Below the pieces are notes generated by a model. That model had not been told where the DNA came from. It saw only the letters and a list, made by a program, of their open reading frames with translations, and ran no database searches. A stretch of DNA of 48,407 nt from an uncultured Alcaligenaceae bacterium (GTDB lineage: Bacteria; Pseudomonadota; Gammaproteobacteria; Burkholderiales; JACQAP01): contig CAYNFN010000413.1 of the NCBI GenBank assembly GCA_964396485.1, forward strand, positions 1-48,407, written 5' to 3'. Of the stretch, positions 9,848 through 48,253 are shown piece by piece. Made by a program: the position numbers and the translations under genes. How positions within the stretch are numbered: the first letter of the stretch is position 1; every line of letters starts with the position of its first letter.

Positions 9848-9882
9848 GGAAGTTGCGTACTCAATATGCAGCTAGAATTATT

Positions 9883-9888
9883 ATTATA
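9883..9888 (-). promoter_or_regulatory. Candidate -10 hexamer (TATAAT) for the radical-SAM / paralogue-C unit
   Basis: Perfect TATAAT on the minus strand 35 nt upstream of the ATG at 9847. It lies inside the only AT-rich stretch of the 9848-9982 divergent spacer. No convincing -35. Confidence 0.35.
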
Positions 9889-9890
9889 CC

Positions 9891-9916
9891 TACCGGTGTC
9901 CACCAACCGTACCGGT
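9891..9916. repeat. Two copies of TACCGGT (palindromic ACCGGT core), 19-bp period
   Basis: TACCGGT at 9891-9897 and 9910-9916. The second is embedded in GTACCGGTA. Located in a divergent promoter spacer. Confidence 0.85.
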
Positions 9917-9982
9917 ATTACCGAATGACCTTATTGGACGGTCCCGCTATTATCCACGTGCCGTGAATAGACTCGCTTAAGG

Positions 9983-16217: not shown

Positions 16218-16221
16218 ATCG

Positions 16222-25150: not shown

Positions 25151-25152
25151 CG

Positions 25153-27829: not shown

Positions 27830-27845
27830 GCCTTCGGACGAACGC

Positions 27846-31059: not shown

Positions 31060-31063
31060 GCGG

Positions 31064-33087: not shown

Positions 33088-33095
33088 GTCTGTCG

Positions 33096-34946: not shown

Positions 34947-34981
34947 GAGGGCGGCGATGCCGCCGGGGGCGGGGCGGATGC

Positions 34982-35866
34982 TCAGAAGTACCCCTCCTGC
35001 TTCTTCTTTTCCATGGATGCCGATTGATCGGAGTCGATCAAGCGGTCTTGCCGTTCGGAGGAGCGCGCATTGAAGGTCTCGGCAATGATCTCCGCTACGG
35101 TTGTAGCCGAGCTTTCAATGGCGCCGCTGAGCGGATAGCAGCCGAGCGTGCGAAAGCGCACCAGCCGCATCTCCGGGGTTTCACCCTTCGCCATGGCAAA
35201 ACGCTCGTCATCAACCATAATGAGCGTGGACCCGCGCCGCACCACTGGCCGCATCTTTGCAAAATACAGGGACACTATGGAAATCTTCTCAAGATGGATG
35301 TATTGCCAGATGTCGAGCTCCGTCCAGTTCGAAAGGGGGAATACGCGCACGCTCTCCCCCGGCCGGACATGCGTGTTGTAGAGGTTCCAAAGCTCTGGCC
35401 TTTGCGCTTTCGGGTCCCATCGATGGCCGGGGGCCCGAACCGAGAAGATACGTTCCTTGGCGCGAGACTTTTCCTCGTCTCGCCGGGCGCCGCCAAATAC
35501 CACATCGAATCCCCGACTATCGAGCACCTGCCTAAGCGCTTGGGTCTTCATTACATCGGTGTAGTAGCTTGACCCGTGCGTAAACGGATTCACGCCCGCC
35601 TCCAGGCCTTCCCGATTCACGTGCACAAAGAGTTCCATGCCCGATTCCGCGATTGCCCGCGCGCGATGCGCGTACATGTCTCGGAATTTCCATGTGGTGT
35701 CCACGTGCAGGAGCGGGAAGGGCGGGGGGCCCGGGTGGAAAGCCTTTCGCGCCAGATGTAGCATGACGGAGGAGTCCTTGCCGACCGAATAGAGCATTAC
35801 CGGGTTGCGCGCCGATGCGACGGCCTCCCGAATTATCTCGATGGCTTCGGACTCGAGGTCAGTCAT
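34982..35866 (-). CDS. cysD: Sulfate adenylyltransferase subunit 2 (CysD, NodP-like)
   Basis: Trimmed to the ATG at 35866 (ATGA overlap with the NUDIX stop). PAPS-reductase-fold motifs [48 protein letters not shown]. Confidence 0.95.
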
Positions 35867-36354
35867 TGCGCCTGGCCGCCGAGTTGCGGAGTCTCCATTC
35901 GATGCTTGCTGAGATGCAACCATACGGCGAAGCTGTCGTAGGGGGTAACGCGCCGGTTCAGCAGAAGTTCCCGTCCACCGACCGCTTCAAAGGCGGCGCC
36001 TTCATGCAAGGTGAACTTCGCAAAGGCTGCGGCGGAAACCTGCACCTCGTAGTAAATGCGGAACACTCTGCTTCCCCCTAGCTCCGAAAAATCGAAATCG
36101 AAGCGCGTCAGCACTTTCGGCGGCGCCTCGAGCTCGTATTCCAGTTCCTCTTTGAGCTCCCGTGCGAGGGCGGACAAGGGCGGTTCGCTTCCATTTACTG
36201 CGCCGCCGAAGCAGCCCCAATGGTCCGGATAGAAGATGCCAGGAATGTTATCTCGGAGCTGCATGACGTAGCGACCGTCGGCGAGAACCAGAACCGCGGC
36301 TACCGCGTCCGCGCCCCTCAGGGGTGTCTTGGCATCTAGGAGAAGGTGCTGCAA
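35863..36354 (-). CDS. NUDIX hydrolase
   Basis: 163-aa ORF. The Nudix box [25 protein letters not shown] fits Gx5Ex7REUxEE. Confidence 0.85.
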
Positions 36355-36361
36355 GGATGCG

Positions 36362-37282
36362 TCAATGCTGGGCCAGCTTGGAAATGATGGCGTCGACCGT
36401 CAGGCCGTGCGCGCCCAGGAGGTCCTCATGCTTGCCGTAAGTATGCACAAATTCATGCTTGAGCGAGAGCGCCTCGATAGCGCAACGCGCGCCCGATTCC
36501 CATGCGATCGCCTTGACCTGGTCGGCGAGGCCGCCCCGCGGCACCATTTCCTCCAGCACGACGATGCGCTGGAAACGCGCAAGCAGCTTTGAAATCCCCT
36601 CCCGATCGAGCGGCTTGACGGTGTGCGCAGAGGCCACCGCGACCGAGACGCCCTTCGATTCGAGCGCCGCGGCTGCGTCCAGGCCCAGCTTGAGGATGGG
36701 GCCGTATCCGATGACGCAGGCATCGCGCCCTTCGCGCAGCATCCGGATCTTGCCGAAGCGGAACGGCTCGGAAGCAGCGTTGCCGAGTATCGGCTCGCCT
36801 GCCTTGCCGAGTCGCAGATAGACCGGACCTTCGGTCTGGCCGACGCAATACTGCGTTGCCGCCTTCGTCTCCTCGGGGTCGCAGGGGGCGATGACACTCA
36901 TGCCGGGCATCGCCGTGGCAATTGCGACGTCCTCCATGGCGTGGTGCGTGCCTCCCAGGGTCGAATACGTCACCCCGCCGCCGACGCCAACCACGGTGAC
37001 CGGCAAGCCCTGGTAGCAGAGATCGTCGCGCACGAACTCATAGGGCCGGAACAGCGCGAAGGTGGCGATGGTGTACGCGAAAGGCCGCAGTCCGCGCATC
37101 GCCATGCCGGCGCACATGCCGATCATGATCTGCTCGGCGACGCCGGTGTTGATGAAGCGCTTCGGATACTCCTTCCTCAGCTTTTCCATCGAGCCCGCGG
37201 GCGAGATGTCGGCTACCACGACGCACAGGCGCGGATCCTTCTTGGCCTCTTCGTAGAAGACGTTCGCGAAGGTGTTCCTCAC
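36362..37282 (-). CDS. Transketolase, C-terminal (pyrimidine-binding) subunit of a split enzyme
   Basis: 306-aa ORF. FINTGVAEQIMIGMCAGMAMRG, GGTHHAMEDVAI. GTGA overlap with the N-terminal subunit gene. Confidence 0.9.
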   Translation of the reverse strand: MRNTFANVFYEEAKKDPRLCVVVADISPAGSMEKLRKEYPKRFINTGVAEQIMIGMCAGMAMRGLRPFAYTIATFALFRPYEFVRDDLCYQGLPVTVVGVGGGVTYSTLGGTHHAMEDVAIATAMPGMSVIAPCDPEETKAATQYCVGQTEGPVYLRLGKAGEPILGNAASEPFRFGKIRMLREGRDACVIGYGPILKLGLDAAAALESKGVSVAVASAHTVKPLDREGISKLLARFQRIVVLEEMVPRGGLADQVKAIAWESGARCAIEALSLKHEFVHTYGKHEDLLGAHGLTVDAIISKLAQH

Positions 37283-38115
37283 GAGCTGATCTCCTTCAGC
37301 TCGCCGAGCGCCTGCGCGTACTCGTCCTTGTTCGGCGAACGGTAGTGCCAGATGGGCACGTGCTCCATGTACGACACGCCGCGGCCCTTGACGGTCTTGC
37401 CGATCAGCACAAAGGGCTTGCCACCCTTTCTCGCGGCCACCGCCGCATGCACCGCTGCCGCATCATGGCCGCTGACTTCGGCTGTCTCCCAGCCGAAGGC
37501 GCGGAACTTCTCTGCGACGGGGAACACCGCGGGATGGTTCTCGCTTATGCGCTCGAGGCCACCGAAATCGTTGAGGTCGACGAAAAGCAGCAGGTTGTCG
37601 AGCTTGTAGTTGGCCGCCATCTGCACGGCCTCCCAGGTTGAGCCCTCCTGCAGCTCCCCGTCCGAGAGCACGACGTGCACACGGGCATCAGTCTCCTTCA
37701 GGTACTCCGCATAGGCCATGCCGACCGCGATGCCGAGTCCGTGCCCGAGCGAACCGGTGGACGCTTCGATGCCTGGTGTGCCGATATCCGGGTGCGCGCC
37801 CAGCACTCCGGCCGGCGTGCAGTAGCGCTCGATTTCTGCGCTCGGCATGATCCCGAGGTCCTCGAGGATCACGTATTGGGAGACACAGCCGTGGCCCTTG
37901 GACATGACGAAGACGTCGCGGAAGCGCCCGCTGGCGCTCAGCGCCGGGCGCATGAGCGCGTGGTAGATGACGTCGGTCATTTCGAGGCACGAGAACGCCG
38001 GCGCGATATGAAGGGCGCCGACACGTTGCGAGACGTCCAGGATCCGCCTGCGGTATTTCAGGCAGCGCGCCCGCGCCGCGGCGGCGTTGAATGCGACATT
38101 CACGATGCTAGCCAC
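37279..38115 (-). CDS. Transketolase, N-terminal (ThDP/diphosphate-binding) subunit of a split enzyme
   Basis: 278-aa ORF with a GTG start. HIAPAFSCLE, SKGHG, GSLGHGLGIAVGMA, VVLSDGELQEGSTWEA (GDG-type ThDP motif). Confidence 0.9.
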   Translation of the reverse strand: MASIVNVAFNAAAARARCLKYRRRILDVSQRVGALHIAPAFSCLEMTDVIYHALMRPALSASGRFRDVFVMSKGHGCVSQYVILEDLGIMPSAEIERYCTPAGVLGAHPDIGTPGIEASTGSLGHGLGIAVGMAYAEYLKETDARVHVVLSDGELQEGSTWEAVQMAANYKLDNLLLFVDLNDFGGLERISENHPAVFPVAEKFRAFGWETAEVSGHDAAAVHAAVAARKGGKPFVLIGKTVKGRGVSYMEHVPIWHYRSPNKDEYAQALGELKEISS

Positions 38116-39100
38116 GCATCACGTAGTCGGTCGAGACCCCGCGCAGTTGATCGCGGTAGCGCTTGCCCCATTCGACCATCTCGCCCAGCCCTTCCTGCCA
38201 GCCGACCTGCGGCTCCCAGCCGAGATCGCGCTTGATCGCGCCCGAATCGAGCCAGTAGCGCGAATCCTGCCCGAGCCGGTCGGGCGCCATCTCGCAGAGC
38301 TGCTCGAAGGGCATGCCCAGGGCTTCGGCGCACAGTTCCACCACCCTGCGGATGCTGGTGGGCTCCGCGGGGCCTGCGTTATAGATCTTGCCGAGTGCCG
38401 CTTTTTCCGCGACCAGATGGACCGCGCGGCCCAGGTCGCGCGCATGGATGTAGGATTTCTCCGCCCTGCCGCCGCCCTGCAGCGGCAGCTTCTTGCCGGT
38501 CAGGCCGCAAAGAATGGTCTTCGGGATCACGCGATGCAGCAGCTGCCCCGGACAATAGGCATTCGAGGGCCGGATGATGTTCATCGGGAACTTCAGGTAC
38601 TTGTGCACCGACTCGAGGTACATGTCGAACGCGACCTTGGAGGCCGCGTAAGGGCTGGTCGGCTTGATCGGCTCGTCTTCCTTGGTTGCATGGCTCACCG
38701 AGCCGTACATCTCGGACGTGCCGATCTGGATGAAGCGCTCGAGCCAGTTGCGCTTCATAAGCTCCTCGCACAGCTTGGAGAGCGCCATCGAATTGGTCTC
38801 GAAGAAGCGCCAGGAGTGCTTCCAGGACACCGCGCCTTCGCCCTGGGCCGCATAATTGACGATCACCTCGGGCTTCACCCGGTCCATCAGCTCAAGCAGC
38901 AGGTCCATCTCGTAGGTCAGATGATAAGCGTGGTATTCGTAGCCGGGCTGCCGCTCGATACCGAGCGAAAACGGCTCCGGGCGTAGCGGGTTGCGGCCGA
39001 CACCGACCACTCGCTTCGGATTGGCGTGCTTCAGCAGGTAGAAAGCGGTGTGGATCCCAAAGGATCCACCGCCACCGAGAATCATGTAGGTTTTGCTCAT
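38108..39100 (-). CDS. NDP-sugar 4,6-dehydratase-like extended SDR (GMD-type TSExYG active-site context)
   Basis: 330-aa ORF. ILGGGGSFG, IGTSEMYG, YAASKVAFD (YxxxK). Confidence 0.85.
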   Translation of the reverse strand: MSKTYMILGGGGSFGIHTAFYLLKHANPKRVVGVGRNPLRPEPFSLGIERQPGYEYHAYHLTYEMDLLLELMDRVKPEVIVNYAAQGEGAVSWKHSWRFFETNSMALSKLCEELMKRNWLERFIQIGTSEMYGSVSHATKEDEPIKPTSPYAASKVAFDMYLESVHKYLKFPMNIIRPSNAYCPGQLLHRVIPKTILCGLTGKKLPLQGGGRAEKSYIHARDLGRAVHLVAEKAALGKIYNAGPAEPTSIRRVVELCAEALGMPFEQLCEMAPDRLGQDSRYWLDSGAIKRDLGWEPQVGWQEGLGEMVEWGKRYRDQLRGVSTDYVMRG

Positions 39101-39759
39101 CTGTTGATAATTGTCCAGTAGTAGTCGCCAGTGTAGCCCGCCTCCGAGTAAACCTTGAGCCAGCCCTCGGGGTAGTCGTGGAACCGCGCCGTTATAATCC
39201 AGCTCAGCGCGATCTCTCTCTCCTCGGGGGTGCGATAGCTATCCACCTGCACGAACGCCCGTCCCCTGCTCAGGCGTTGAATCTCCCGCATGGCGACAAC
39301 CGCCCCTTCGCGGGTGAGATTGTGAATGGTATTAAGCGAGATCACGCAATCGAAGGACCCGTCTGGAAATGGCAGGCTCTCCGCAGAGCCAAGGTGCAAG
39401 CGCCCGACAACTTCCCGCTCGCAGTGCATCAGCGCGTAGTACGAGATGTCGAGCCCGAACGCCTCCAGCCCCGGGCACTCGAGCATCAGGTCCTTGACGA
39501 GGAATCCCTTGCCGCATCCCACGTCGAGCAGGCGCATGCCCACCTCGAGCCCGAAGTGCCTGATCATGTCGCGCGCGACGGAACGCCAGCGGCCGTCGTA
39601 GCGGTAGCCGCCATAGCCGTACTTGCGGTCGCCGTCCCAGTATTCCTGGCCGAATTCTCTCGAGATCGCGATCAAGGCATCATCTTTCGCCTCGGCGCGC
39701 TTCTCGATATTGCGCTTTGTCTTCGGCAACGAGCCCAGCAGGTCGATTTCCCTACCCAT
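39097..39759 (-). CDS. Class I SAM-dependent methyltransferase
   Basis: 220-aa ORF. LLDVGCGKGFLVKDL, FDCVISLNTIHNL. ATGA overlap downstream and an 8-bp overlap upstream. Confidence 0.85.
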   Translation of the reverse strand: MGREIDLLGSLPKTKRNIEKRAEAKDDALIAISREFGQEYWDGDRKYGYGGYRYDGRWRSVARDMIRHFGLEVGMRLLDVGCGKGFLVKDLMLECPGLEAFGLDISYYALMHCEREVVGRLHLGSAESLPFPDGSFDCVISLNTIHNLTREGAVVAMREIQRLSRGRAFVQVDSYRTPEEREIALSWIITARFHDYPEGWLKVYSEAGYTGDYYWTIINR

Positions 39760-40624
39760 TTCGGGACTTCCTCAATCCATCCTCCAGCGTCGTATAGCGG
39801 AAATCAGGGAACGCACTGCGGCACACGGCAATGTCGAACGGCCGGTAGCCGTTGTGCGGCATCGGACCTGACCGGGCGGTGGTCTTGATGCTTGATTTTC
39901 CGCCTTCCATTTTTACTATCATTGTTGCGATATCCATGAACGAATGCACTTCACCGGTCGCGATGTTGAGCACGCCGGCGCTGCACCGGTAGAGGACCTG
40001 TGCCACGAGCTCAGCCACGTCGTCGATGAACACGTGGTCGCGCCGCTCCTCGCCGTTGCCGAACAACACGATGTCCTCGCCCTTCGCCGCGAGCCGTCGG
40101 AAGCGGTTCGGGCCGTAGCCATTGTGGGGATCGGCGGAACCGTAGAGCAGGCTCGGCCGCAGGATCGCGAGCGGCGCCTTGATCTCGTTCTGGAACAGCA
40201 CCTCGCGCGCAAGATGCATCGCGCCATGCAGGCTGCCGGGGGACGCACAGGAGCGTTCCGTGAGCGGACTGTCGCTGTCCGCATAGACCGCATCGGAGCT
40301 GATGTTCACCACGTGCGCGACGGACGCCTTCGACAGTGCACGCGCCATCGCCCGCGCCATCACCATGTTCTCGACCAGCATATCCGCGTTCTTGACCGGC
40401 GCCTTGGCCGACGCGGTGACTACTGAGTCGGTTTCCCGCAGGAACTTCCCCAAACCGCCGTCTGCATCGCCTGCGAGAAGATCCACTTCCTTGCGGGAAA
40501 CGCGCAATACCGAAACGCCCTCGCGCTCCAGGCGGTTGGCAACCGCGCCGCCGACAAAACCTGCCGCGCCGAGAATCACGACCCGGGGAGGCTTCTGCTC
40601 CCGCGAATTCAGATGCCGCATCAT
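39752..40624 (-). CDS. Atypical extended SDR (Rossmann fold intact, canonical YxxxK apparently replaced by HxxxH)
   Basis: Trimmed to the ATG at 40624 (ATGA overlap). VVILGAAGFVGG, ISSDAVY, then PGSLHGAMHLAREV where P..YG.SK...E is expected. Confidence 0.8.
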   Translation of the reverse strand: MMRHLNSREQKPPRVVILGAAGFVGGAVANRLEREGVSVLRVSRKEVDLLAGDADGGLGKFLRETDSVVTASAKAPVKNADMLVENMVMARAMARALSKASVAHVVNISSDAVYADSDSPLTERSCASPGSLHGAMHLAREVLFQNEIKAPLAILRPSLLYGSADPHNGYGPNRFRRLAAKGEDIVLFGNGEERRDHVFIDDVAELVAQVLYRCSAGVLNIATGEVHSFMDIATMIVKMEGGKSSIKTTARSGPMPHNGYRPFDIAVCRSAFPDFRYTTLEDGLRKSRNG

Positions 40625-41865
40625 GAACGTCCCAGCGTGTGAATGCGCAGGCCCGCAGCCGCGGCCGCTTTTCCATCGAGGACTTTGTACGGATCGAGCA
40701 CAATGCGGCCGCGCATTGCGGCCGCGATCTTGGCCGGTTCGATGCTCCGGTATTCCGGCCACGGCGTGAGGATCATGAGCGCGTCGGCGCCGCGCGCGAC
40801 TTCGAGCGGATCTTTTTCCGTTGAACCCGGCACGACCGGGTCGTGCAGGCGCAGCGCGGTGCCCTGCAACTGCGCGATAGTGGCTAGCGAGGGCGAATTT
40901 TTCACCGAATTGGTGTTTTCCTTGTAGGCGAGGCCCCAGACGGCAACCGTCGCATTCGGGTTGCTGTCGAGCAATGCCTCGCGGATCCTGCGCGCTGCCC
41001 AGTCGCGGCGGTGCCGGCTGTTCGCGACCCAGGCCCTAACCACGCCCGCATCGGTTCCCAGCTCGCCGGCGAGGCGGATCACGGTCTGGAGGTCGCGCTC
41101 CAGGTTCCCGCCCGCGATGCCGAGGCCGGGAGAGAGGTAGGCGTGCGCCCCGATACGCTTGTCGAGTTTGAGCGCTGGCGCAATCTCCGACCAGTCCGCG
41201 TCCATGCGCTCGCAGAGCTCGGCGAGCGTATTGGCAACGCTAACCGAGGCGACCAGGCAGCAATTGATTGCGATCTTGGCGAGCTCCGCGCTTTCGTAGC
41301 GCATCGGCAAGATCGGACAGCCGAACGCCGCCAGAAATTCGCCATAGGCCGCCGGCAGCGGTCTAGCCGGATCGGCGCAGCCGACGACGAACCGCTCCGG
41401 ATGGACGGCCCGCTCCACGGCAATGCCGAAGACGAGCGTCTCGACTTGGTAGTAGAGCCGCGTCGGCGCGAGCCCGATCTTGCGTGTGAAGCCAGGTGGC
41501 ACTTGGCACAGCACTACCAATGTCGAATCTTTTCCAAGAGCCGGAATGACCCGTTCGAGGAGATCTTGCACCCCCGTCAGGTCGCTGCGCCCCTGATCGT
41601 CGGTCGCGACGTCGGTAGAGATGTAGACCACCGCGCAACGGCCAAGATCCGACGCAATGGTCGTGAATGTCGAGAGTCCTTTCTTTGTTCGAAGAATTTC
41701 CTCGAGCCCCGGCTCGGTGACGGTAGGACGTCCTAGCCTCAACCCTTCGATCGCGGCACCGTTGGTGTCGAATCCGACAATCTGAAAACCGCGCTGCATT
41801 GCCGCCGCGGCCGAAATGATGCCGAGGTGCGTCATGCCCGCAAAACCGATGACCGGCCGGCTCAT
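40621..41865 (-). CDS. UDP-glucose/GDP-mannose dehydrogenase-family protein lacking the catalytic cysteine
   Basis: ATG at 41865 with GGAG 5 nt upstream (the ORF-track GTG is at 41871). Rossmann VIGFAGMTHLG. Family C-terminal motif WGLAYKENTNSVKNSPS. The active-site block reads SPGLGIAGGNLERD versus the canonical P.[FL]G.GG.C[LF]PKD, with Asn codon AAC at 41104-41106. Confidence 0.85.
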   Translation of the reverse strand: MSRPVIGFAGMTHLGIISAAAAMQRGFQIVGFDTNGAAIEGLRLGRPTVTEPGLEEILRTKKGLSTFTTIASDLGRCAVVYISTDVATDDQGRSDLTGVQDLLERVIPALGKDSTLVVLCQVPPGFTRKIGLAPTRLYYQVETLVFGIAVERAVHPERFVVGCADPARPLPAAYGEFLAAFGCPILPMRYESAELAKIAINCCLVASVSVANTLAELCERMDADWSEIAPALKLDKRIGAHAYLSPGLGIAGGNLERDLQTVIRLAGELGTDAGVVRAWVANSRHRRDWAARRIREALLDSNPNATVAVWGLAYKENTNSVKNSPSLATIAQLQGTALRLHDPVVPGSTEKDPLEVARGADALMILTPWPEYRSIEPAKIAAAMRGRIVLDPYKVLDGKAAAAAGLRIHTLGRS

Positions 41866-41884
41866 GCGCACTCCAGGAGCGCCC

Positions 41885-42817
41885 TCATGCGTTCGCCATC
41901 GCGACCGCCTTCGTACCGAGCTTACGCAGCGTGCGCTGCAGCCACAGGTCGCGCCCGAGATCGGTCGTCGTCCCAGATGCGCATAGCGACTTGAAATGCG
42001 CGTATTCCAGGGCCCAAGTCGGGTCCGGTTGCTCGAGCGTCACCGGATCCTCATGTGGACGACCGGACGGCAGCACGCGCGTGCGCAAGGTGAAGGTGCT
42101 CGGACCCCATTTGCAAAGCGAACTGATGTGCGCCGAGCCTTTCTCGGCGAAAACATCGCAGGTGAAATGGTTGCGCCACGATAGCAGCGTCATCTCCAGT
42201 TCCAGTTGCGGCCGGCTGCCCCTGGAGCCGAGCACGACATGGTCCGGCGCCTTGTTCTCAAAGCGCCTTGCCGATATCACCGACAGGTCATCATCGATCG
42301 CGTCGAACCAGAAGAGAGCAGTGTCGAGCAGGTGCGAGCCGAGGTCGGGCAAGACGCCCGCGCCAGTATCGCGCCATGCTGAGTCGCGCACGAGTCGCGC
42401 CGTGCCGTTGCCGTAAAACATCCTGCAATGGTAGATCTCGCCCAGCACTCCCGACTGGATCGCTTCGCGCATGCGCACGTAGTGCGGCTCGAAACGGTGG
42501 TTGTAAGCGGTGTAGCAGACCGCATCGTGCTCGCGCGCGATGCGCTCCAGCTGCGCGACATCTGCATCGCGCGCCGTCCAGAGCGGTTTCTCGACCAACG
42601 CGTGCTTGCCGTTCGAAAGCAGGTACTCGAGGACTTCTGCCTTGGGTTCATCCGGCGTGCAGACCAATGCCGCGTCATAGCGTTCCAATGGCACGTCCCC
42701 GAGCGACTTGAAGTCCGCCTCCGGTCGCGCCGGGTCCACGCTGGCGACGAAGTCCTTCCCCGCTGCGGCGCGGCGCTTTGCGCCCTGGACACCCAACCCT
42801 ACGACAATCACCTTCAA
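41885..42817 (-). CDS. Gfo/Idh/MocA-family oxidoreductase
   Basis: 310-aa ORF. TTG start in a TTGA overlap with the upstream stop. MKVIVVGLGVQG, HALVEKPL, LPDLGSHLLD. Confidence 0.85.
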   Translation of the reverse strand: MKVIVVGLGVQGAKRRAAAGKDFVASVDPARPEADFKSLGDVPLERYDAALVCTPDEPKAEVLEYLLSNGKHALVEKPLWTARDADVAQLERIAREHDAVCYTAYNHRFEPHYVRMREAIQSGVLGEIYHCRMFYGNGTARLVRDSAWRDTGAGVLPDLGSHLLDTALFWFDAIDDDLSVISARRFENKAPDHVVLGSRGSRPQLELEMTLLSWRNHFTCDVFAEKGSAHISSLCKWGPSTFTLRTRVLPSGRPHEDPVTLEQPDPTWALEYAHFKSLCASGTTTDLGRDLWLQRTLRKLGTKAVAMANA

Positions 42818-44379
42818 GCTTTGCCGTTCTCGCTGTAGTTCGCCTGCTGCTCAGCCAAGTCGATCTTGCCGCCTACATCCTCCGGCGTAACCGGCACGTT
42901 GCCGTCCACCTCGCATTCGCACGCCGCGGCCACCGAACCGAGTATCGTCGCGATCGCGTCAGACCCGGTGGCAAGCTTGGCGAGCGTTGCGTAAGCAAGA
43001 AGTGCATCGCCCGCTCCCACCGCATCGACCACTCGATCCACGAACGAGTCAATGACGATGAATGACTCAAGCGATTCGTGATTGCCACTGCGGCACGTAA
43101 GCACGCCGCGCTCACCAAGCTTCAGGATCAGAGTCTTGCATTGCGCCGCGTCGTAAAGAGAGGACGCAAGCGGGCGGATTCCGGAGTCCTGGTCGGCGAG
43201 CGCGAACCGCGCCTCGCGCTCGTTCGGCGTGATGAGGTCGAACCCCTTGAATTCGGTGATGTTGCCCCAGCGGCTCGCAACCTGGCTGTCGGCTACCTTG
43301 AACCGCCCTGCCGGAATCGCATCCACCAGCCGCGGGATAGTGCGGCGGTTGAAGACGCCGTGCCGGAAGTCGCTGAACACGACCGCATCCGAGGGCACCT
43401 CACGCACCGCGGCGGCGAGCTTCTCCACGATCTCGTCCGAGATCGAGCGGTTGTCCAGCGTGTCGATTTTGAGCAGACGGTAGCCACCGGCGACGATGGC
43501 GTTCTTGTTGGTCGTCGGGCGGGTCTTGTCGATGATGGCGCGGCAGTCCACGCCACGCTTTTTCAGCCCATCGAGGACGAAGTCCTTGAGACTGTCGTCG
43601 CCCAGCACGGTGGAGAACACCACTTCGGCCCCCGCAGCGCGGAGATGCTCTGCTACCACTGCTGCACCCCCGATGTAATCGTCGCGACGCTCGTAGAGCA
43701 CGCTCATGGTCGGCGTCTTGGTCTGGCCGCCCACCATCGCGGTCTGGGTGTAGCTGTCCACGATCGTGTCGCCGACGACATGAACGCGGTATTGCCCCAT
43801 TTTCTTGAGCGCGGCACGCAGCGAGTCGAAGGTGAGCCCTTCGCTGTCCATGAAGGTGAGCAGCTTCTCGCTCTTGATGGAGGGCGGCGCAAGGTCAATG
43901 AGGCGCGTGGACGAATAGACAATATCGCCCGGGGTGAAGATTATCTCGCCGCCGTAGGCCTTGAGCGCGTCGACCTCTTCCTGAGTCTTGGCGGGCAGAC
44001 CGGCCGCGGTGTACTCGTAGCCCTTGGCGAAGAAATCCGGCTGCAGCAGCACGATGTTCTCGAGCGGAGTCGGATTGCGGTCGATGACCACGTAGTCGAC
44101 CATCTCGAACGCCGCCAGGTTGAGCGCTCGCAGCTGCTGCGGAATGTGGGGACGGTGCTGGCCCTTGCTGATGTGGCGGTCGGCGGTGAGACTGGCGACG
44201 AGAATGTCCGCCTTGGTTTTCGCGTAGAGCAGGTGCCGCACGTGCCCGGGATGCACGACGTCGAACACGCCGTGGCACATGATGACTTTCTTCTGGCGCG
44301 GCCGCGCGCCGAGAATTGGTTTCAGTTCCTCCGGCGTCTTGATCTTGTGCCGGTATTTTTCGGTCAGCGAGGACAGCAA
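42814..44379 (-). CDS. Bifunctional sugar-1-phosphate nucleotidyltransferase (cytidylyltransferase fold, N-terminal) / PfkB sugar kinase (C-terminal): HldE-like but in reversed domain order
   Basis: 521-aa ORF. TTG start with AGGAG 7 nt upstream. N-domain CHGVFDVVHPGHVRHL (HxGH). C-domain HVVGDTIVDSY ... DAVGAGDALLAY (PfkB motif). Confidence 0.9.
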   Translation of the reverse strand: MLSSLTEKYRHKIKTPEELKPILGARPRQKKVIMCHGVFDVVHPGHVRHLLYAKTKADILVASLTADRHISKGQHRPHIPQQLRALNLAAFEMVDYVVIDRNPTPLENIVLLQPDFFAKGYEYTAAGLPAKTQEEVDALKAYGGEIIFTPGDIVYSSTRLIDLAPPSIKSEKLLTFMDSEGLTFDSLRAALKKMGQYRVHVVGDTIVDSYTQTAMVGGQTKTPTMSVLYERRDDYIGGAAVVAEHLRAAGAEVVFSTVLGDDSLKDFVLDGLKKRGVDCRAIIDKTRPTTNKNAIVAGGYRLLKIDTLDNRSISDEIVEKLAAAVREVPSDAVVFSDFRHGVFNRRTIPRLVDAIPAGRFKVADSQVASRWGNITEFKGFDLITPNEREARFALADQDSGIRPLASSLYDAAQCKTLILKLGERGVLTCRSGNHESLESFIVIDSFVDRVVDAVGAGDALLAYATLAKLATGSDAIATILGSVAAACECEVDGNVPVTPEDVGGKIDLAEQQANYSENGKA

Positions 44380-44389
44380 GGTTTAACTC

Positions 44390-45382
44390 CTACCTGAGAT
44401 ACTCGAACCATGTCCTGGTCGCCCGGGCGATCGAATCCGGCTCCCACAGCGGAGCATTCTTCCAGTATGCGATGTCGGCGAGAATCCTCCCCACGCCTTC
44501 CTCGAAGCTCACCTGTGGCGCCCAGCCTAAGTCGGCCTTGATCGGTGCGATGTCCGCCCAGGTGCAATCAGGCTCGCCCGGGCGCTTCGGAATATAGACT
44601 CTCTCGCCGCCGAGCAGCTCGATCAATCGGTTGACCGACTGCGGATTGCCGGCACCCAGGTTCCAGAAGCGCCCCGTGAGCCCGGTTTCGGCTGCCGCGA
44701 GAAAAGCGGTTGCTACATCCGTGCCATATAGGAAGTCGCGCCGCTGGCTGCCATCGCCGACCACTGTGTACGGCTTGCCGGCGAGCTTCTGCCTTAGGAA
44801 TACACCGAACACCGCACCGTAGGCACCCGAGGTGCGCGAACGGGTGCCGTAAGCGTTAAAGATGCGGATCGAATTCACCGGCAATTTGTAGACCCGGTGC
44901 CAATGGAACGCGGCCTGCTCGCCCTGGTACTTGGAGAGCGCGTACGGATACTGCGGCGCGATCGGGTGGTCGGCGCGCGTCGGCACCTCGGCTAGGCCGT
45001 AGCACGACGATGACGCGGCGTAGACGAACTTCTGCACGCCGGCATGCCGCGCGCATTCGAGCACGTGCACGGTGCCGAGTACGTTTGCCGACATGTACTC
45101 GGTGGGCTGCTCGATCGAAGGCACGATGTCGCCGATGCCGGCGAAGTGAAACACGTATTTTGCGCCGCGAAACAGCACGTCGTCGGGGGCGTAGCTGCGG
45201 ATGTCGCGCTCCTCCAGCATGAAATCCGGATTGCGCGCGTGTTGCGTCAGATTCTCGCGCCGGCCGCCAAAGAGATTGTCCATGGCGCGCACCGCATACC
45301 CCCTTTGCAGCAGGAGGTCCACCATGTGGCTGCCGATGAACCCGGCGCCGCCCGTGACGACGGCGATCGGGTGCGAGGTCAT
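44390..45382 (-). CDS. Extended-SDR NAD-dependent sugar epimerase/dehydratase
   Basis: Trimmed to the ATG at 45382 (ATGA overlap). AVVTGGAGFIGSHMV, ASSSCYG, YALSKYQGE. Confidence 0.9.
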   Translation of the reverse strand: MTSHPIAVVTGGAGFIGSHMVDLLLQRGYAVRAMDNLFGGRRENLTQHARNPDFMLEERDIRSYAPDDVLFRGAKYVFHFAGIGDIVPSIEQPTEYMSANVLGTVHVLECARHAGVQKFVYAASSSCYGLAEVPTRADHPIAPQYPYALSKYQGEQAAFHWHRVYKLPVNSIRIFNAYGTRSRTSGAYGAVFGVFLRQKLAGKPYTVVGDGSQRRDFLYGTDVATAFLAAAETGLTGRFWNLGAGNPQSVNRLIELLGGERVYIPKRPGEPDCTWADIAPIKADLGWAPQVSFEEGVGRILADIAYWKNAPLWEPDSIARATRTWFEYLR

Positions 45383-46386
45383 GCCGCCTTGAGTTCCTTC
45401 AGCCGGCGGACGTTGAAGTAGAACGTGTCGTCCATGCTTTTCGGCAACTTGCCCGCCTTGAACGCCCTGCACAGGTCGCGCACGGCGTCCTCAATCTTGT
45501 ACTTGGGCTGAAAACCGATCACGCGCCGGATCTTGTCGGAATTGACGTGGTAGGAGCGAATGTCATCGGTTGGCGTGGTGACGATTGGGATCTCGCCCTT
45601 CTCCGGGAATTCCTCCTGCGCGATGCGCTTGACGATCTGCGCAATCTCCATGATGGAGAGGTTCTGGACGCCAGCGTTGAAGGTCTGGCCAGCAATCTTG
45701 TCGTCAGGAACCTCGAGCAGAAGTTTGTAGAGGTCGCACATGTCCTGGACGTGCAGGTTGGGGCGCTTCTGCGAACCGCCGAACACTGTGATCTTGCCGG
45801 CGTTGATGGCGTGGTTGGTGAGAATATTGACAGAGAGATCGAGGCGTTGGCGCGGCGCGTAGCCGCACAGCGTTGCCGGCCGGATCGTCACGCACACGAA
45901 CTCGGGCGACTGGTGCTTGAACAGGAGCGGCTCGCACATGCCTTTGTACTTGTTGTAGAGCGTGAGCGGCACCAGCGGATGGTCTTCGGTGACGTCGGGC
46001 GACTCCGAAACGCCATAGACCGAGCTGGAGGAGCAATAGATGAAGCGCTTCACGCCGGCCTTCTTCGCCGCAACGACCATCGGCTCGAAGGCGTCCAGGT
46101 TGATCGTGGTCGAGAGCTTCTCGTCCAGCTCGAAGCTCGCGTCGTTCGAGATGCAGGCGAGGTTGATGACCGCCTCGATGCCTTTGAATTCCTCCGCAAG
46201 CTTTTTCGTATCGCGGATATCGGCCTTCACCACCTTCAGATTGGGATTGCTCTTCGGCAGGAAGTGATCGCCGAAGTACATGACGTCCAGAGCGGTGACC
46301 TTGTAGCCCGCCTCGAGAAGCTGCGGCACGAGAAGGCTTCCCACATAGCCGGCGCCGCCGGTGACGAGTACGTTCTTGAATCTCAT
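45379..46386 (-). CDS. Extended-SDR NAD-dependent sugar epimerase
   Basis: 335-aa ORF. VLVTGGAGYVGS, SSSSVYG, YNKYKGMCE. Confidence 0.9.
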   Translation of the reverse strand: MRFKNVLVTGGAGYVGSLLVPQLLEAGYKVTALDVMYFGDHFLPKSNPNLKVVKADIRDTKKLAEEFKGIEAVINLACISNDASFELDEKLSTTINLDAFEPMVVAAKKAGVKRFIYCSSSSVYGVSESPDVTEDHPLVPLTLYNKYKGMCEPLLFKHQSPEFVCVTIRPATLCGYAPRQRLDLSVNILTNHAINAGKITVFGGSQKRPNLHVQDMCDLYKLLLEVPDDKIAGQTFNAGVQNLSIMEIAQIVKRIAQEEFPEKGEIPIVTTPTDDIRSYHVNSDKIRRVIGFQPKYKIEDAVRDLCRAFKAGKLPKSMDDTFYFNVRRLKELKAA

Positions 46387-46387
46387 A

Positions 46388-47122
46388 TCAGGCTGCCGCG
46401 CGGGTGGCGATCGTGTAGCCCGCCGCTTTCGCGTCCTTGTAGAACATTTCCACGGTCTCCAATGAATAAGTGTCGAGGTTCTTGCCGACGAGCGCGAGCT
46501 TCTTGAGGATGTCGTTCGTGGCGGTGATGATGTGGCAACCGATCGCGTCGGCCTGGAAGATGTTGAGCAGCTCCCGCGGGCTCGCCCAGATCAGTTCCGC
46601 CTTGGGTTTCGCGCGCATGATCTTCACGGCTTCGGCCATGAGCGGCACCGGGTCGCGGCCGGTGTCAGCGATGCGCCCTGCGAACACGGAGATGATCGCC
46701 GGAGTGTCCGGCGCCAGGCGCTCTGTAACACGTCGCACCTGGTCGAGTGTGAGGAGCGCGGTGACGTTGAGTTTCACGCCCGCCTTGGAGAGCCGCTCGA
46801 TGAGCGATCCCGAGAACTCACCCTTGGTGTTGGTCACCGGAATCTTGACGCTGACGTTCCTGCCCCAAGACGCGATCTCGAGCGCCTGTTGCTCCATCTG
46901 GCCGAAATCGTCGGCGAACACCTCGAACGACACCGGCCGGTCGGAGATCGCTCGCAGCACTTCGTGCGCGAAAGCCTTGTAATCGGCCACGCCCGCCTTG
47001 CGCATCAAGGTCGGGTTGGTGGTGAAGCCCTTGATCAACGGGTTCGCGGCCATTTCCTTCATGCCCGCGAGATCGGCGCCGTCGGCGAAAAGTTTTACCT
47101 TGAGGGCCTTGAGATCGGCCAT
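46388..47122 (-). CDS. Small (TalC/Fsa-type) transaldolase / fructose-6-phosphate-aldolase-family enzyme
   Basis: 244-aa ORF. FADGADL, GFTTNPTLM, Schiff-base Lys context NVSVKIPVT, SVFAGRIAD. GGGAG lies upstream of the ATG. Confidence 0.9.
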   Translation of the reverse strand: MADLKALKVKLFADGADLAGMKEMAANPLIKGFTTNPTLMRKAGVADYKAFAHEVLRAISDRPVSFEVFADDFGQMEQQALEIASWGRNVSVKIPVTNTKGEFSGSLIERLSKAGVKLNVTALLTLDQVRRVTERLAPDTPAIISVFAGRIADTGRDPVPLMAEAVKIMRAKPKAELIWASPRELLNIFQADAIGCHIITATNDILKKLALVGKNLDTYSLETVEMFYKDAKAAGYTIATRAAA

Positions 47123-47135
47123 TTGAACTCCCTGA

Positions 47136-47678
47136 CTAGAGTTGTCGGACGGACAGCAGGATAAGCTTGACCGCGTCAGGCAGCGATTTTACCGCAACAT
47201 ACGGTTTATCCGGGTATTTTTCCTCGTAATTTCGCTCGACGAAGTAAGCCTTGCAGCCTGCAGCGTGTGCGGCGCCGATGTCGCGCCAACGATCCCCGAC
47301 AAGAAAACTCGCCGCGAGATCGATTCCTTTCTCCGAGGCAGCTTCGAGCAGCATCCCGGGCTTGGGCTTGCGGCAGGCGCAGTTTTCCTCGGCGACGTGA
47401 TAGCAGACCTTGACCGCGTCGATCGCGAGCGAGGCGAGCAATCGCGCGTGCATCGCCTCGACCACCTCTCGGCGCTGCTTGCCGGTCGCGACGTCGGGCT
47501 GATTGGTGACGACCACATTTAGAAAGCCCGCCGCGCGCAACTGCTCGAGCACGTCGGGAACCCCCGGCAGGATTTCGAATTCGGCAAGCGAATCAGGTGG
47601 ATAGGGCTTGCCATCGCGCACCACGGCCCGGTTGATGACGCCGTCGCGGTCGAGAAAGACCGCCCGCCGGCCTACCAC
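47136..47678 (-). CDS. gmhB: HAD-IIIA sugar bisphosphate phosphatase (D,D-heptose 1,7-bisphosphate phosphatase-like)
   Basis: 180-aa ORF with a GTG start overlapping the upstream stop. AVFLDRDGVIN, VVTNQPDVATG, FLVGDRWRD. Confidence 0.85.
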   Translation of the reverse strand: MVGRRAVFLDRDGVINRAVVRDGKPYPPDSLAEFEILPGVPDVLEQLRAAGFLNVVVTNQPDVATGKQRREVVEAMHARLLASLAIDAVKVCYHVAEENCACRKPKPGMLLEAASEKGIDLAASFLVGDRWRDIGAAHAAGCKAYFVERNYEEKYPDKPYVAVKSLPDAVKLILLSVRQL

Positions 47679-48253
47679 TTGGTCGCGGTCTGCTGCAGCG
47701 CCGGGTGCGACACCAGGCAGTGCCAGACGACCGCGTGGAAGGCTTCTGTGTGGGGCGTCACGCGGGACGCGTCCACGGTGGGAACCACGATCACGCAGTC
47801 ACCTACCTGCTTGGTGTAGCCGCCGTCGCGCCCGACCACGCCGAAGACTTTCATGCCGCGGCTCTTGGCTTCCTTGAGGCCAGCGACGATATTGGGGCTG
47901 ACGTTTTTCTCAAGGTTGCCGCCGCCCACCGAAAACACGAACACCGCGTCCTTGTCGTTGCCGCGGCTCGTCTTGAGCCAGGCGGAAAACACCGTGTCCC
48001 AGCCCTCATCGTTGGTGCGGGCAGTGAGCTCGGACACGTTGTCGGTCGGCGCGTAGGCTTCGATGCCACATAGCTTCCGAAAGTCGTTCACCGCGTGCCC
48101 GCAATTTCCGGCGCTGCCGCCGACACCGAGAAAGAACAGCCGCCCGCCGCCCTCGCGCAATGCCGCGAGCTCGCGCGCAAGGCGCTCGATCGCGGCAAGA
48201 TCGATGGTCTGCGCGACTTTGACGACTTCCTGAAAGTAGGTCTGGGTGTGCAT
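47672..48253 (-). CDS. gmhA: SIS-domain sugar-phosphate isomerase (phosphoheptose isomerase-like)
   Basis: Trimmed to the ATG at 48253 (MHTQTYFQEV...). LFFLGVGGSAGNCGHAVNDF, VFSVGGGN. First gene of the long minus operon. Confidence 0.9.
   Translation of the reverse strand: MHTQTYFQEVVKVAQTIDLAAIERLARELAALREGGGRLFFLGVGGSAGNCGHAVNDFRKLCGIEAYAPTDNVSELTARTNDEGWDTVFSAWLKTSRGNDKDAVFVFSVGGGNLEKNVSPNIVAGLKEAKSRGMKVFGVVGRDGGYTKQVGDCVIVVPTVDASRVTPHTEAFHAVVWHCLVSHPALQQTATKW

Follow-up and report, generated by a model that had tools for sequence, protein, structure and literature searches.

A conserved operon proposed to build a nucleotide-activated higher-carbon sugar for a bacterial surface polysaccharide

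In the biosynthesis of the antibiotic lincomycin, the lincosamine sugar is assembled by a transaldolase (LmbR), which forms octulose 8-phosphate from ribose-5-P, followed by a SIS isomerase (LmbN), a HAD phosphatase (LmbK), a GHMP kinase (LmbP), an NTP_transferase (LmbO), an epimerase (LmbM), a UGDH-like protein (LmbL), a Gfo/Idh/MocA oxidoreductase (LmbZ) and an aminotransferase. Classical heptose loci carry gmhA, hldE or hddA/hddC, and gmhB, and no characterised heptose locus is known to carry a transaldolase, a UGDH-like protein lacking the catalytic Cys, or a Gfo partner. A third related system is an 11-gene operon of Bradyrhizobium that is genetically tied to bradyrhizose, the C10 sugar of its O-antigen. 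Disruption of its "gdh" gene abolishes the O-antigen, although the role of the operon is itself only inferred and a polar effect was not excluded (PMC4743980).

The window analysed here is a stretch of 48,407 nucleotides, positions 1 to 48,407 of contig CAYNFN010000413.1 (assembly GCA_964396485.1), from an uncultured Alcaligenaceae bacterium. An earlier note, made from the sequence alone, described a minus-strand run of sugar-nucleotide genes in this window and proposed a lincosamine-like pathway making a C8, or heavily remodelled C7, deoxy/amino sugar for a polysaccharide. The observation was confirmed, since every gene that the note named is present with strong family matches, at most with a different choice of start codon. 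The interpretation is partly supported: the locus is not a canonical heptose locus and its transaldolase is an integral, conserved part of the pathway, but the aminotransferase is not part of the conserved cassette, the transketolase does not look like a supplier of the pathway, and the kinase and nucleotidyltransferase, as the note itself had said, are not of the Lmb types. All parallels to Lmb enzymes given below are parallels of enzyme class and gene context.

Composition of the 14-gene block

Positions 35863–48253 (minus strand) hold 14 tightly packed genes separated by gaps of -8 to +19 nt, which fits translational coupling. The first gene (47672–48253, 193 aa) encodes a SIS-domain ketose-phosphate isomerase of the GmhA/LmbN class (SIS_2, 1.8e-09), which scored 59.5 bits on the gmhA model against a cut-off of 209. 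Its best PDB matches were phosphoheptose isomerases at 66 bits, with the His and acidic active-site residues aligned. The second gene (47136–47678, 180 aa) overlaps the SIS stop by 7 nt and encodes a HAD-IIIA sugar-bisphosphate phosphatase of the GmhB/LmbK class, above cut-off for TIGR01656 and TIGR01662 but at 120.6 bits against 178 for the GmhB equivalog NF006506. The third gene (46388–47122, 244 aa) encodes a small transaldolase of TIGR02134 type and LmbR class (TAL_FSA, 2e-42; TIGR02134, 362.6 bits against a cut-off of 282). All of its catalytic residues, namely the Schiff-base Lys ("VSVKIPVT"), "TTNPTL", the Glu ("SFEV") and the TAL-type Phe ("SVFAGR"), aligned to the T. maritima transaldolase structure 1vpx.

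Two extended SDRs follow. SDR1 (45379–46386, 335 aa) is of epimerase type (Epimerase, 4e-37), passes no NCBIfam equivalog, and scored 66 bits against the HldD cut-off of 275. SDR2 (44390–45382, 330 aa) is of epimerase/decarboxylase type (Epimerase, 3e-53). The next gene (42814–44379, 521 aa) encodes a fusion of an N-terminal cytidylyltransferase-like nucleotidyltransferase (CTP_transf_like, residues 35–160) and a C-terminal PfkB sugar kinase (residues 230–493), the reverse of the HldE domain order. The fusion scored 147 bits on the HldE model against a cut-off of 521, and about 98 of the best 150 library representatives were collinear full-length matches at 30–61% identity.

A Gfo/Idh/MocA oxidoreductase of the LmbZ class (41885–42817, 310 aa; GFO_IDH_MocA_C3 and the N-terminal domain) overlaps the fusion gene by 4 nt. 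It is followed by a protein of the UDP-glucose/GDP-mannose dehydrogenase family, LmbL class (40621–41865, 414 aa), which contains all three UGDH domains (TIGR03026, 197 bits against 190) but carries Asn in place of the catalytic Cys. The motif "GIAGGNLERD" aligned with "GYGGSCFPKD" of the Sphingomonas elodea UGDH structure 4a7p, the Lys and Asn of "AELAKIAIN" are retained, and the Asn (GGN) is invariant in 127 of 127 homologues.

SDR3 (39752–40624, 290 aa) resembles RmlD and GDP-fucose synthase (RmlD_sub_bind and Epimerase) but lacks the YxxxK catalytic motif, which was absent from all 6 orthologues examined; "SLHGAMHLARE" is conserved instead. A class I SAM methyltransferase (39097–39759, 220 aa; Methyltransf_11, 6e-16) precedes an NDP-sugar 4,6-dehydratase-like SDR (38108–39100, 330 aa; GDP_Man_Dehyd, 7e-38), which carries "GTSEMYG" and "YAASK" motifs and scored 171 bits on the dTDP-glucose 4,6-dehydratase model against a cut-off of 365. 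A split transketolase is encoded by an N-terminal, ThDP-binding subunit (37279–38115, 278 aa; Transketolase_N, 4e-29) and a C-terminal subunit (36362–37282, 306 aa; Transket_pyr and Transketolase_C). The best PDB match of the latter was the C-chain of the Carboxydothermus split transketolase 6yaj (160 bits), and the split transketolase is about 40% identical to that solved enzyme. A NUDIX hydrolase gene (35863–36354, 163 aa; NUDIX, 5e-07), not listed in the earlier note, closes the block.

Conservation of the block and its three-gene front end

The block was found almost unchanged in many uncultured soil and water bacteria. It recurs in the same order at 55–95% amino-acid identity in five independent metagenomic contigs, henceforth L001, L003, L007, L008 and L009, with the exceptions noted below, and in further metagenomic loci such as L017, L019, L022 and L053. 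Identities across the syntenic loci were 86–91% for SIS, 68–74% for HAD, 83–91% for SDR1, 81–84% for SDR2 (orthologues of 328–332 aa), 75–79% for Gfo and 84–95% for the 4,6-dehydratase-like SDR. The methyltransferase is 75–89% identical in four of the loci, whereas L008 holds only a partial match (68% over 61% of the protein) with no gene called there. The NUDIX gene is present at the end of the cassette in all five loci at 55–61% identity, and is followed by an NTP_transferase in L003 and L009. The split transketolase is present in L003, L007 and L009 but absent in L001 and L008, where L008 carries an E1-alpha/beta ThDP pair instead. The CysD/CysNC genes and the DegT gene of the window are not part of the block.

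The SIS-HAD-TAL trio constitutes a module of its own. Among 47 related metagenomic loci with enough flanking sequence, 38 have both SIS and HAD directly upstream of the transaldolase and 5 more have one or both adjacent. The trio precedes either the tailoring set of this window ("type W") or a UGDH-like (Cys->Thr), SDR, Gfo, GHMP kinase and NTP_transferase set ("type L"), the latter in Rhizobium jaguaris, Lawsonia intracellularis and 25 metagenomic loci. Type L reproduces every lincosamine sugar enzyme class except the aminotransferase, and its Gfo-GHMP-NT order matches lmbZ-P-O. SIS is 69% identical in R. jaguaris and 59% in Lawsonia, and the transaldolase is 60–68% identical to its cluster-linked relatives. 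The type L kinase and nucleotidyltransferase are also far below the HddA and HddC cut-offs (168 against 600 and 92 against 300, respectively).

Seven cassette genes have homologues at 32–43% identity in the Bradyrhizobium operon: the nucleotidyltransferase-kinase fusion, SDR1, SIS, the 4,6-dehydratase, both transketolase subunits and the 220-aa methyltransferase. The dehydratase is 32–35% identical over its full length to gdh, the methyltransferase 43% to the 220-aa methyltransferase of the operon, and the N-terminal transketolase subunit 40–43% and SDR1 42–44% to the Bradyrhizobium-type operon. The order of the dehydratase and the two transketolase genes is the same. The fusion is 32–33% identical to the fusions in Bradyrhizobium, Azospirillum and Solidesulfovibrio, and SDR1 and SDR2 are 55% and 57% identical, respectively, to Azospirillum oryzae proteins. 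The A. oryzae variant also ends in a NUDIX gene and has an E1-alpha/beta pair in place of the transketolase.

Proposed pathway and competing readings

The block is best read, with moderate confidence, as one operon dedicated to an NDP-activated, deoxygenated, methylated, C2-extended sugar of eight or more carbons for the surrounding surface-glycan locus, which uses an ABC transporter; a modified heptose is not excluded. In this view, the transaldolase would transfer a C3 dihydroxyacetone unit from fructose-6-P or sedoheptulose-7-P to an aldose phosphate, giving a ketose phosphate longer than the usual precursor, most simply an octulose 8-phosphate from ribose-5-P, as LmbR does. The SIS enzyme would isomerise this product to the aldose phosphate, the PfkB half of the fusion would phosphorylate C-1, the HAD-IIIA enzyme would remove the distal phosphate, and the cytidylyltransferase-like half would make the NDP-sugar. 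SDR1 and SDR2 would then epimerise, the Gfo and Cys-less UGDH-like enzymes would oxidise or dehydrate the exocyclic side chain without forming an acid, and the 4,6-dehydratase-like SDR would make a 4-keto-6-deoxy intermediate. The split transketolase, an optional accessory, would add a two-carbon unit to a carbonyl, SDR3 and the methyltransferase would finish the sugar, and the NUDIX enzyme would hydrolyse an NDP-sugar, either as proofreading or to allow exchange of the nucleotide. The enzyme classes, their strict conservation as a block, the invariant loss of the UGDH thiol and the modular front end shared with an Lmb-like gene set are demonstrated by the analysis, while every reaction, together with the substrates, the carbon number, the order of steps and the final product, is inferred from enzyme class and gene context.

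The earlier note had assigned the transketolase to the supply of ribose-5-P and sedoheptulose-7-P. In every variant, however, including the Bradyrhizobium operon that lacks a transaldolase, it sits after the 4,6-dehydratase gene and, being optional, it looks like a C2-adding tailoring enzyme rather than a supplier. Two-subunit ThDP enzymes that add C2 branches to 4-keto sugars have precedent in AviB1/B2 and Pau11/12 (PMC4425429).

A modified heptose pathway remains a possible, though less favoured, alternative. Here the transaldolase, with the transketolase where present, would only boost the sedoheptulose-7-P supply, the SIS, kinase, phosphatase and nucleotidyltransferase would make an NDP-D-glycero-manno-heptose, and the SDRs, dehydratase and methyltransferase would convert it to a 6-deoxy and/or O-methyl heptose, as in the Campylobacter, Yersinia and Burkholderia 6-deoxyheptose routes. 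The best family matches of SIS, HAD and the fusion are indeed the heptose enzymes, the kinase and nucleotidyltransferase are of the HldE kind used for heptoses, the transketolase resembles 6yaj, and a 4,6-dehydratase with a reductase-like SDR fits 6-deoxyheptose formation. The transaldolase scores well inside TIGR02134 and is only modestly closer to its cluster-linked relatives than to plasmid-borne TIGR02134 transaldolases of Staphylococcus, Lactobacillus and Treponema (50–54%), so ordinary sedoheptulose-7-P formation cannot be excluded. The Bradyrhizobium and Azospirillum relatives also show that the core of SIS, fusion and SDR1 can work without a dedicated transaldolase, presumably from sedoheptulose-7-P. 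Against this reading, SIS, HAD, the fusion and SDR1 all fall far below the curated heptose cut-offs, and the transaldolase-linked SIS proteins (about 60 bits on the gmhA model) are more diverged from GmhA than the SIS of the Bradyrhizobium operon (111 bits). Moreover, the transketolase is dispensable and is replaced by an E1-type ThDP pair, which cannot make sedoheptulose-7-P, and the trio co-occurs with the Lmb-like class set of type L.

Two further readings are considered unlikely. In a bradyrhizose-type pathway, a heptose-derived 4-keto-6-deoxy intermediate would receive a C2 unit from the split transketolase at C-4, be cyclised to a carbocycle-fused sugar and be methylated, as is presumed for the Bradyrhizobium O-antigen monomer. 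The seven shared genes favour this, but their identity is at family rather than orthologue level; gdh itself is 86–98% identical across the Bradyrhizobium and Tardiphaga hits listed. The window also lacks the NTP_transferase, Zn-ADH, APH-like kinase and 205-aa protein of that operon, adds TAL, HAD, SDR2, Gfo, UGDH-like, SDR3 and NUDIX, and two cassette variants have no transketolase. The literal reading of the note, an NDP-6-amino-6,8-dideoxy-octose formed by LmbR/N/K analogues, 6,8-dehydration by the UGDH-like/Gfo pair and transamination by the DegT enzyme (29926–31059), rests on the class parallels with LmbR, N, K, M, L and Z and on a DegT gene in the same strand run. The 4,6-dehydratase, methyltransferase and transketolase of the cassette have no Lmb counterpart, and no aminotransferase accompanies the cassette in L001, L003, L007 or L009. 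In L008 a DegT-type gene lies upstream on the opposite strand, but neither it nor the DegT gene of the window belongs to the conserved block, and an amino sugar of lincosamine type is thus not indicated. The DegT gene of the window lies about 5 kb beyond the cassette, after the CysD/CysNC genes, and is coupled to its own second Gfo gene (Gfo2) and a further SDR (SDR4) with gaps of -4 and +4 nt. The ORF at 31068–32111 is a shadow ORF; the real gene there is this SDR, located in the ORF 31064–32467 with a start near 32068.

Gene content and boundaries of the cassette

The minus strand from 48253 down to 35863 carries 14 genes with intergenic distances running from -8 to +19 nt. Pfam and NCBIfam profile searches assigned these genes, in order, as a SIS isomerase, a HAD-IIIA phosphatase, a small transaldolase (TAL), two extended SDRs (SDR1 and SDR2), a 521-aa fusion protein, a Gfo/Idh/MocA oxidoreductase, a UDP-glucose/GDP-mannose-dehydrogenase-family (UGDH-like) protein, an RmlD-like SDR (SDR3), a class I methyltransferase, a 4,6-dehydratase-like SDR carrying ‘GTSEMYG’ and ‘YAASK’ motifs, the two halves of a split transketolase (TKN and TKC) and a NUDIX hydrolase. 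The fusion protein contains a cytidylyltransferase-like (CTP_transf_like) domain at residues 35-160 and a PfkB kinase at residues 230-493, which is the reverse of the domain order in HldE, where the kinase is N-terminal and the adenylyltransferase C-terminal. The gene list of the earlier note was therefore correct, with the NUDIX gene to be added. Fold assignment is not in doubt for these proteins. PDB sequence searches with the UGDH-like, Gfo, TAL, SIS and TKC proteins found no close solved relative.

The transaldolase scored 362.6 bits against the TIGR02134 cut-off of 281.95. It retains the Schiff-base Lys (in ‘VKIP’), the Asp and Glu, and the Phe (in ‘SVFAGR’) that distinguishes transaldolases from fructose-6-P aldolases. 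The UGDH-like protein lacks the catalytic Cys nucleophile of the GGxCxxKD motif found in the dehydrogenases that carry out the four-electron oxidation to the uronic acid. Its ‘GGNLERD’ aligns with ‘GGSCFPKD’ of structure 4a7p, placing Asn at the position of the catalytic Cys, and Asn was present in all 127 of 127 homologues retrieved. A second, canonical nucleotide-sugar dehydrogenase with the catalytic Cys intact (‘GGHC’) sits just upstream of the cassette in three of the syntenic metagenomic contigs described below (L003 237-1520, L007 2317-3606 and L009 2330-3610), and the Cys-less copy is therefore not a decayed duplicate doing the same job. SDR3 (39752-40624) has no YxxxK catalytic motif, and all six orthologues carry a conserved ‘SLHGAMHLARE’ at the expected place, consistent with either an atypical catalytic dyad or a non-redox role.

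Five independent metagenomic contigs carry the same genes in the same order, from SIS to NUDIX, at 55-95% amino-acid identity. These are L001/L002, whose UGDH-like protein is named by NCBI as from a Burkholderiales MAG, L003, L007, L008 and L009. Within the cassette the transketolase is optional. It is present in L003, L007 and L009, while L001 has an 805-aa protein of unknown family between the methyltransferase and the dehydratase and an E1_dh gene further downstream, and L008 has an E1-alpha/E1-beta-type ThDP pair after the NUDIX gene. No intact methyltransferase gene was called in L008 either, where only a partial match remains. The NUDIX gene is followed by an NTP_transferase in L003 (15520-16769) and L009 (15492-16743). 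CysD and CysNC, a second Gfo gene, an SDR at 31064 to about 32068 and the DegT aminotransferase at 29926-31059 are not conserved next to the cassette, and the DegT gene is absent from the conserved block in the five syntenic loci.

The nearest curated families for SIS, HAD and both halves of the fusion are those of the ADP-heptose and GDP-heptose pathways, and the inferred sequence of isomerase, anomeric kinase, phosphatase and nucleotidyltransferase (NT), followed by a 4,6-dehydratase-like SDR, is shared with heptose activation and 6-deoxyheptose tailoring (GDP-manno-heptose 4,6-dehydratase and reductase). Every score was nonetheless far below the curated equivalog cut-off: 59.5 against 209.45 for gmhA, 147.2 against 521 for HldE, 120.6 against 178 for GmhB, and 66.2 against 274.6 for heptose 6-epimerase in the case of SDR1 (3- to 4-fold below for gmhA, HldE and the epimerase). 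A dedicated transaldolase, a Cys-less UGDH-like protein, a Gfo enzyme, a split transketolase and a NUDIX are also present, and these are not known from characterised heptose loci. The cassette is not a canonical heptose locus by these criteria. The reversed fusion is itself a large family for which no characterised member is known, with 1026 library representatives at E <= 1e-30, and about 98 of the best 150 are collinear over the full length at 30-61% identity.

The transaldolase module and related operons

A metagenome scan with a transaldolase alignment found 577 relatives, of which the best 80 were retrieved. Among the 47 loci with at least 1350 nt upstream of the transaldolase, 38 have SIS and HAD directly upstream and 5 more have one or both adjacent; in the window the three genes are likewise adjacent and overlapping. 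The loci fall into two architectures. In type W (22 loci and the window) the SIS-HAD-TAL trio is followed by SDR1-SDR2-fusion-Gfo-UGDH(Asn)-SDR3-methyltransferase-dehydratase. In type L (25 loci) the trio is preceded by SDR-UGDH-like-adh_short-Gfo-GHMP kinase-NTP_transferase.

Type L exists in cultured bacteria, namely Rhizobium jaguaris CCGE525 on pRCCGE525c (L013 6838-14717, where the cluster ends at an IS66 transposase), Rhizobium sp. CB3060, and the pig pathogen Lawsonia intracellularis on plasmid 3 (L015 7712-16063). Relative to the window, the SIS proteins of these clusters are 59-69% identical and the transaldolases 60-68% identical, and the trio as a whole is 55-69% identical between the window and R. 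jaguaris. Their UGDH-like proteins carry Thr instead of Cys (‘GGTLARD’). The GHMP kinase and NT of type L are far from the GDP-heptose equivalogs HddA (168 against 600) and HddC (92 against 300). The SIS proteins linked to a transaldolase scored about 60 bits on the gmhA model, while the SIS of a TAL-less Bradyrhizobium operon scored 111 bits. These facts argue that the trio makes something other than plain heptose phosphate.

The lincosamine (GDP-octose) branch of lincomycin/celesticetin biosynthesis uses LmbR, N, P, K and O, then LmbM, L, Z (CcbZ) and S (PMC12945683, PMC4351081). The cassette shares six enzyme classes with this branch, namely transaldolase, SIS isomerase, HAD phosphatase, SDR epimerase, UGDH-family dehydrogenase and Gfo/Idh/MocA oxidoreductase, and the inferred logic of ketose-P, aldose-P, 1-P and NDP-sugar is also the same; this correspondence is at class level only. 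The genes for the UGDH-like and Gfo proteins are adjacent (19-nt gap) and conserved, and their resemblance to LmbL and LmbZ/CcbZ rests on family assignment alone. The kinase and nucleotidyltransferase of the window are a PfkB and a cytidylyltransferase-like domain fused together instead of the GHMP kinase (LmbP) and NTP_transferase-type guanylyltransferase (LmbO), no aminotransferase (LmbS/CcbS) is conserved with the cassette, and the extra 4,6-dehydratase, methyltransferase, atypical SDR, split transketolase and NUDIX lie in a surface-glycan context rather than in an antibiotic cluster. These Lmb types of kinase and nucleotidyltransferase are found with the same trio in R. jaguaris, Lawsonia and the 25 metagenomic loci. 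Type L contains every sugar-pathway enzyme class of the lincomycin cluster except the aminotransferase (K, L, M, N, Z, P, O and R), and its Gfo-GHMP-NT order matches lmbZ-P-O. A protein search baited with the TIGR02134 transaldolase of Streptomyces sp. 3211 returned no S. lincolnensis or S. caelestis protein, and the context of that Streptomyces gene is not Lmb-like.

A second, sequence-based relative is the 11-gene O-antigen operon conserved in photosynthetic Bradyrhizobium. Disruption of ‘gdh’ (BRAO285v1_100023), a dTDP-glucose-4,6-dehydratase-like gene in this operon, was found to abolish the O-antigen, a polymer of the C10 bicyclic sugar bradyrhizose, and bradyrhizose synthesis has been proposed for the operon (Busset et al. 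2016, PMC4743980). To determine whether the window carries this operon, the published gdh primer was used as a query, and it hit Bradyrhizobium sp. ORS375 (L005) and a MAG contig labelled Nitrosovibrio sp. Nv4 (L006). The latter carries a Bradyrhizobium-type operon and an exact 21-nt match to the ORS285 gdh primer but is overall only about 77% identical in DNA to the Bradyrhizobium loci, so the operon type extends beyond the photosynthetic bradyrhizobia. The gdh protein is 86-98% identical across the Bradyrhizobium and Tardiphaga hits listed, and homologues at 88-95% identity are also named from B. diazoefficiens, B. betae and Tardiphaga.

The complete operon was recovered from a Bradyrhizobium genome whose gdh is 98% identical (L010), with the gene order NT-kinase fusion, NTP_transferase, SDR, SIS, gdh, TKN, TKC, Zn-ADH, a 205-aa protein, an APH-like kinase and a 220-aa methyltransferase. 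Seven of the 11 genes have homologues in the window cassette: the fusion (32%), SDR1 (42%), SIS (36%), the dehydratase (32%), TKN (40%), TKC (41%) and the methyltransferase (43%). The unusual reversed fusion and the dehydratase-TKN-TKC order are shared, and both are O-antigen/glycan loci. The NTP_transferase, Zn-ADH, APH-like kinase and 205-aa protein have no homologue in the cassette, and TAL, HAD, Gfo, UGDH-like, SDR2, SDR3 and NUDIX have no counterpart in the Bradyrhizobium operon. The hypothesis that the window carries the bradyrhizose operon itself was rejected on this basis, as the identity level and differing gene set indicate a paralogous relative and not the same product. In Bradyrhizobium the NTP_transferase lies directly after the NT-kinase fusion (L010 6117-8336), which, together with the NTP_transferase after the NUDIX in type W loci, suggests that the sugar may be re-activated with a second nucleotide.

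Azospirillum oryzae has a further variant comprising an SDR2-like gene (57%), fusion, SIS, an SDR1-like gene (55%), E1-alpha, E1-beta, two DegT genes, a radical SAM gene and a NUDIX. Solidesulfovibrio carbinolicus has the fusion and SIS beside radical SAM genes, with a split transketolase nearby. One hybrid metagenomic locus (L085 1781-7700) has TAL-SIS-HAD followed by a distant NT-kinase fusion (34%), an SDR1-like gene (56%) and a split transketolase, linking the trio to the Bradyrhizobium/Azospirillum-type core. The picture is a modular superfamily of pathways built on SIS plus the reversed NT-kinase fusion plus SDR1, usually with a 4,6-dehydratase-like SDR and a two-subunit ThDP enzyme.

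Inferred product and alternative readings

The operon is real, well delimited and widely conserved, with no characterised member, and these points of gene content and conservation are what the sequence comparisons establish directly; the catalytic steps, the role of each enzyme and the size of the sugar are inferred from enzyme class, active-site residues and gene context. It is very likely that the block is a dedicated NDP-sugar pathway starting from a ketose phosphate handled by SIS, kinase, phosphatase and NT. That the UGDH-like enzyme stops at the carbonyl stage, without forming an acid, follows from the missing thiol. That the backbone exceeds seven carbons rests on indirect evidence, namely the obligatory transaldolase, the divergence from the heptose enzymes, the Lmb-like sister architecture and the link to an operon for a C10 sugar, and is considered only slightly more likely than not. 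The interpretation of the earlier note, a lincosamine-like pathway, was supported in part. The analogy is partly right, at the level of enzyme classes and mainly through the sister architecture, for the front end and the UGDH-like/Gfo pair, but it is wrong for the DegT aminotransferase that the note had included and probably for the transketolase that it had proposed as a supplier of ribose-5-P and sedoheptulose-7-P. The nearest genetically studied relative is the Bradyrhizobium operon.

The transketolase is dispensable, interchangeable with an E1-type ThDP pair, always follows the 4,6-dehydratase, and is present in operons that have no transaldolase. The simplest reading is therefore a tailoring enzyme that would transfer a two-carbon unit to a carbonyl of the nucleotide sugar, by analogy with AviB1/AviB2 and Pau11/Pau12, two-subunit ThDP enzymes that add C2 branches to 4-keto sugars (PMC4425429). 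In L008 and in A. oryzae an E1-alpha/beta-type pair occupies this role, whereas the pair in the window is transketolase-type. This remains an inference, since the protein is about 40% identical to its best solved relative, the split transketolase of Carboxydothermus (6yaj), and a role in pentose-phosphate supply is not excluded. Inspection by eye of the phosphate-binding residues in the 6yaj alignment gave an ambiguous result.

The main rival is a modified heptose with a private sedoheptulose-7-P supply. In its favor, the transaldolase sits firmly in TIGR02134 and is only 6-18 percentage points closer to its cluster-linked relatives than to Staphylococcus or Lactobacillus transaldolases; were the product an ordinary modified heptose, the finding would reduce to a well-delimited but unremarkable glycan operon. 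A caryophyllose/erwiniose-type long acyl branch made by a YerE-like ThDP enzyme (PMC9306805) was also considered and has no support, as no YerE-type enzyme was found by Pfam among the cassette genes. A more far-reaching reading, which is possible but tentative and less likely than not, is that the cassette makes a sugar not yet described: an octose or longer, built by a LmbR/N/K-like front end, activated as an NDP-sugar, 6-deoxygenated, extended by two carbons at a keto group by the split transketolase, methylated, and perhaps cyclised as in bradyrhizose. In this view SIS-HAD-TAL would be a general genomic marker for sugars of eight or more carbons in Gram-negative surface glycans, and the lincosamine sugar pathway of Streptomyces would be one offshoot of a widespread cell-surface pathway with the two tailoring architectures, type W and type L.

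Sugars with more than seven carbons, other than the ulosonic acids, are rare in bacterial glycans, and their biosynthesis is almost unknown outside lincomycin, with the genes for bradyrhizose still only inferred. Searches of the open-access literature for a transaldolase-containing heptose or O-antigen locus, or for octoses in LPS made this way, found nothing relevant. The present comparison defines a strictly conserved 14-gene cassette, a three-gene front-end module and a sister architecture in cultured bacteria, which gives concrete strains and a short list of enzymes bearing on whether Gram-negative bacteria place octose-type sugars on their surface. It also links the lincomycin sugar pathway, heptose activation and the Bradyrhizobium O-antigen operon in one comparative frame.

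The surrounding glycan locus

The rest of the window is a large glycan locus containing Wzm/Wzt ABC transporter genes (15453-17019), at least seven methyltransferases, a radical SAM/SPASM enzyme, three DegT genes, a sulfotransferase with its own PAPS supply and GT2 glycosyltransferases. CysD and a CysN-CysC fusion for PAPS synthesis lie directly after the cassette (33096-35923) and the sulfotransferase lies on the other strand (24949-25917), so the glycan is probably sulfated. The second Gfo gene (Gfo2), the SDR at 31064 to about 32068 (SDR4) and the DegT gene form a separate, tightly coupled trio for an amino sugar (29926-33156, inferred from gene content). The 347-aa ORF at 31068-32111 is Arg/Ala-rich, has no family match, and is a shadow frame of the SDR gene.

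A gene with an LPG_synthase_TM/flippase-like membrane domain recurs near these cassettes (window 28993-29916, L001 18951-19700 and L015 9680-10663), and in Lawsonia it lies immediately after the transaldolase. At 8774-12156, the radical SAM/SPASM enzyme lies next to a DegT aminotransferase and a protein of the aminoglycoside 3-N-acetyltransferase family (Antibiotic_NAT), an unusual combination for a glycan locus. A 456-aa protein (23780-25150) between a DegT gene and the sulfotransferase has a C-terminal flavin-reductase domain (residues 296-446) and an N-terminal 290 residues with no family match. Seven long ORFs of 408-749 aa (within 1999-6417, 7327-8748, 13298-14704, 18904-21153 and 27783-29009) have no Pfam match and are candidates for novel glycosyltransferases, polymerases or chain terminators of the ABC-transporter-dependent pathway.
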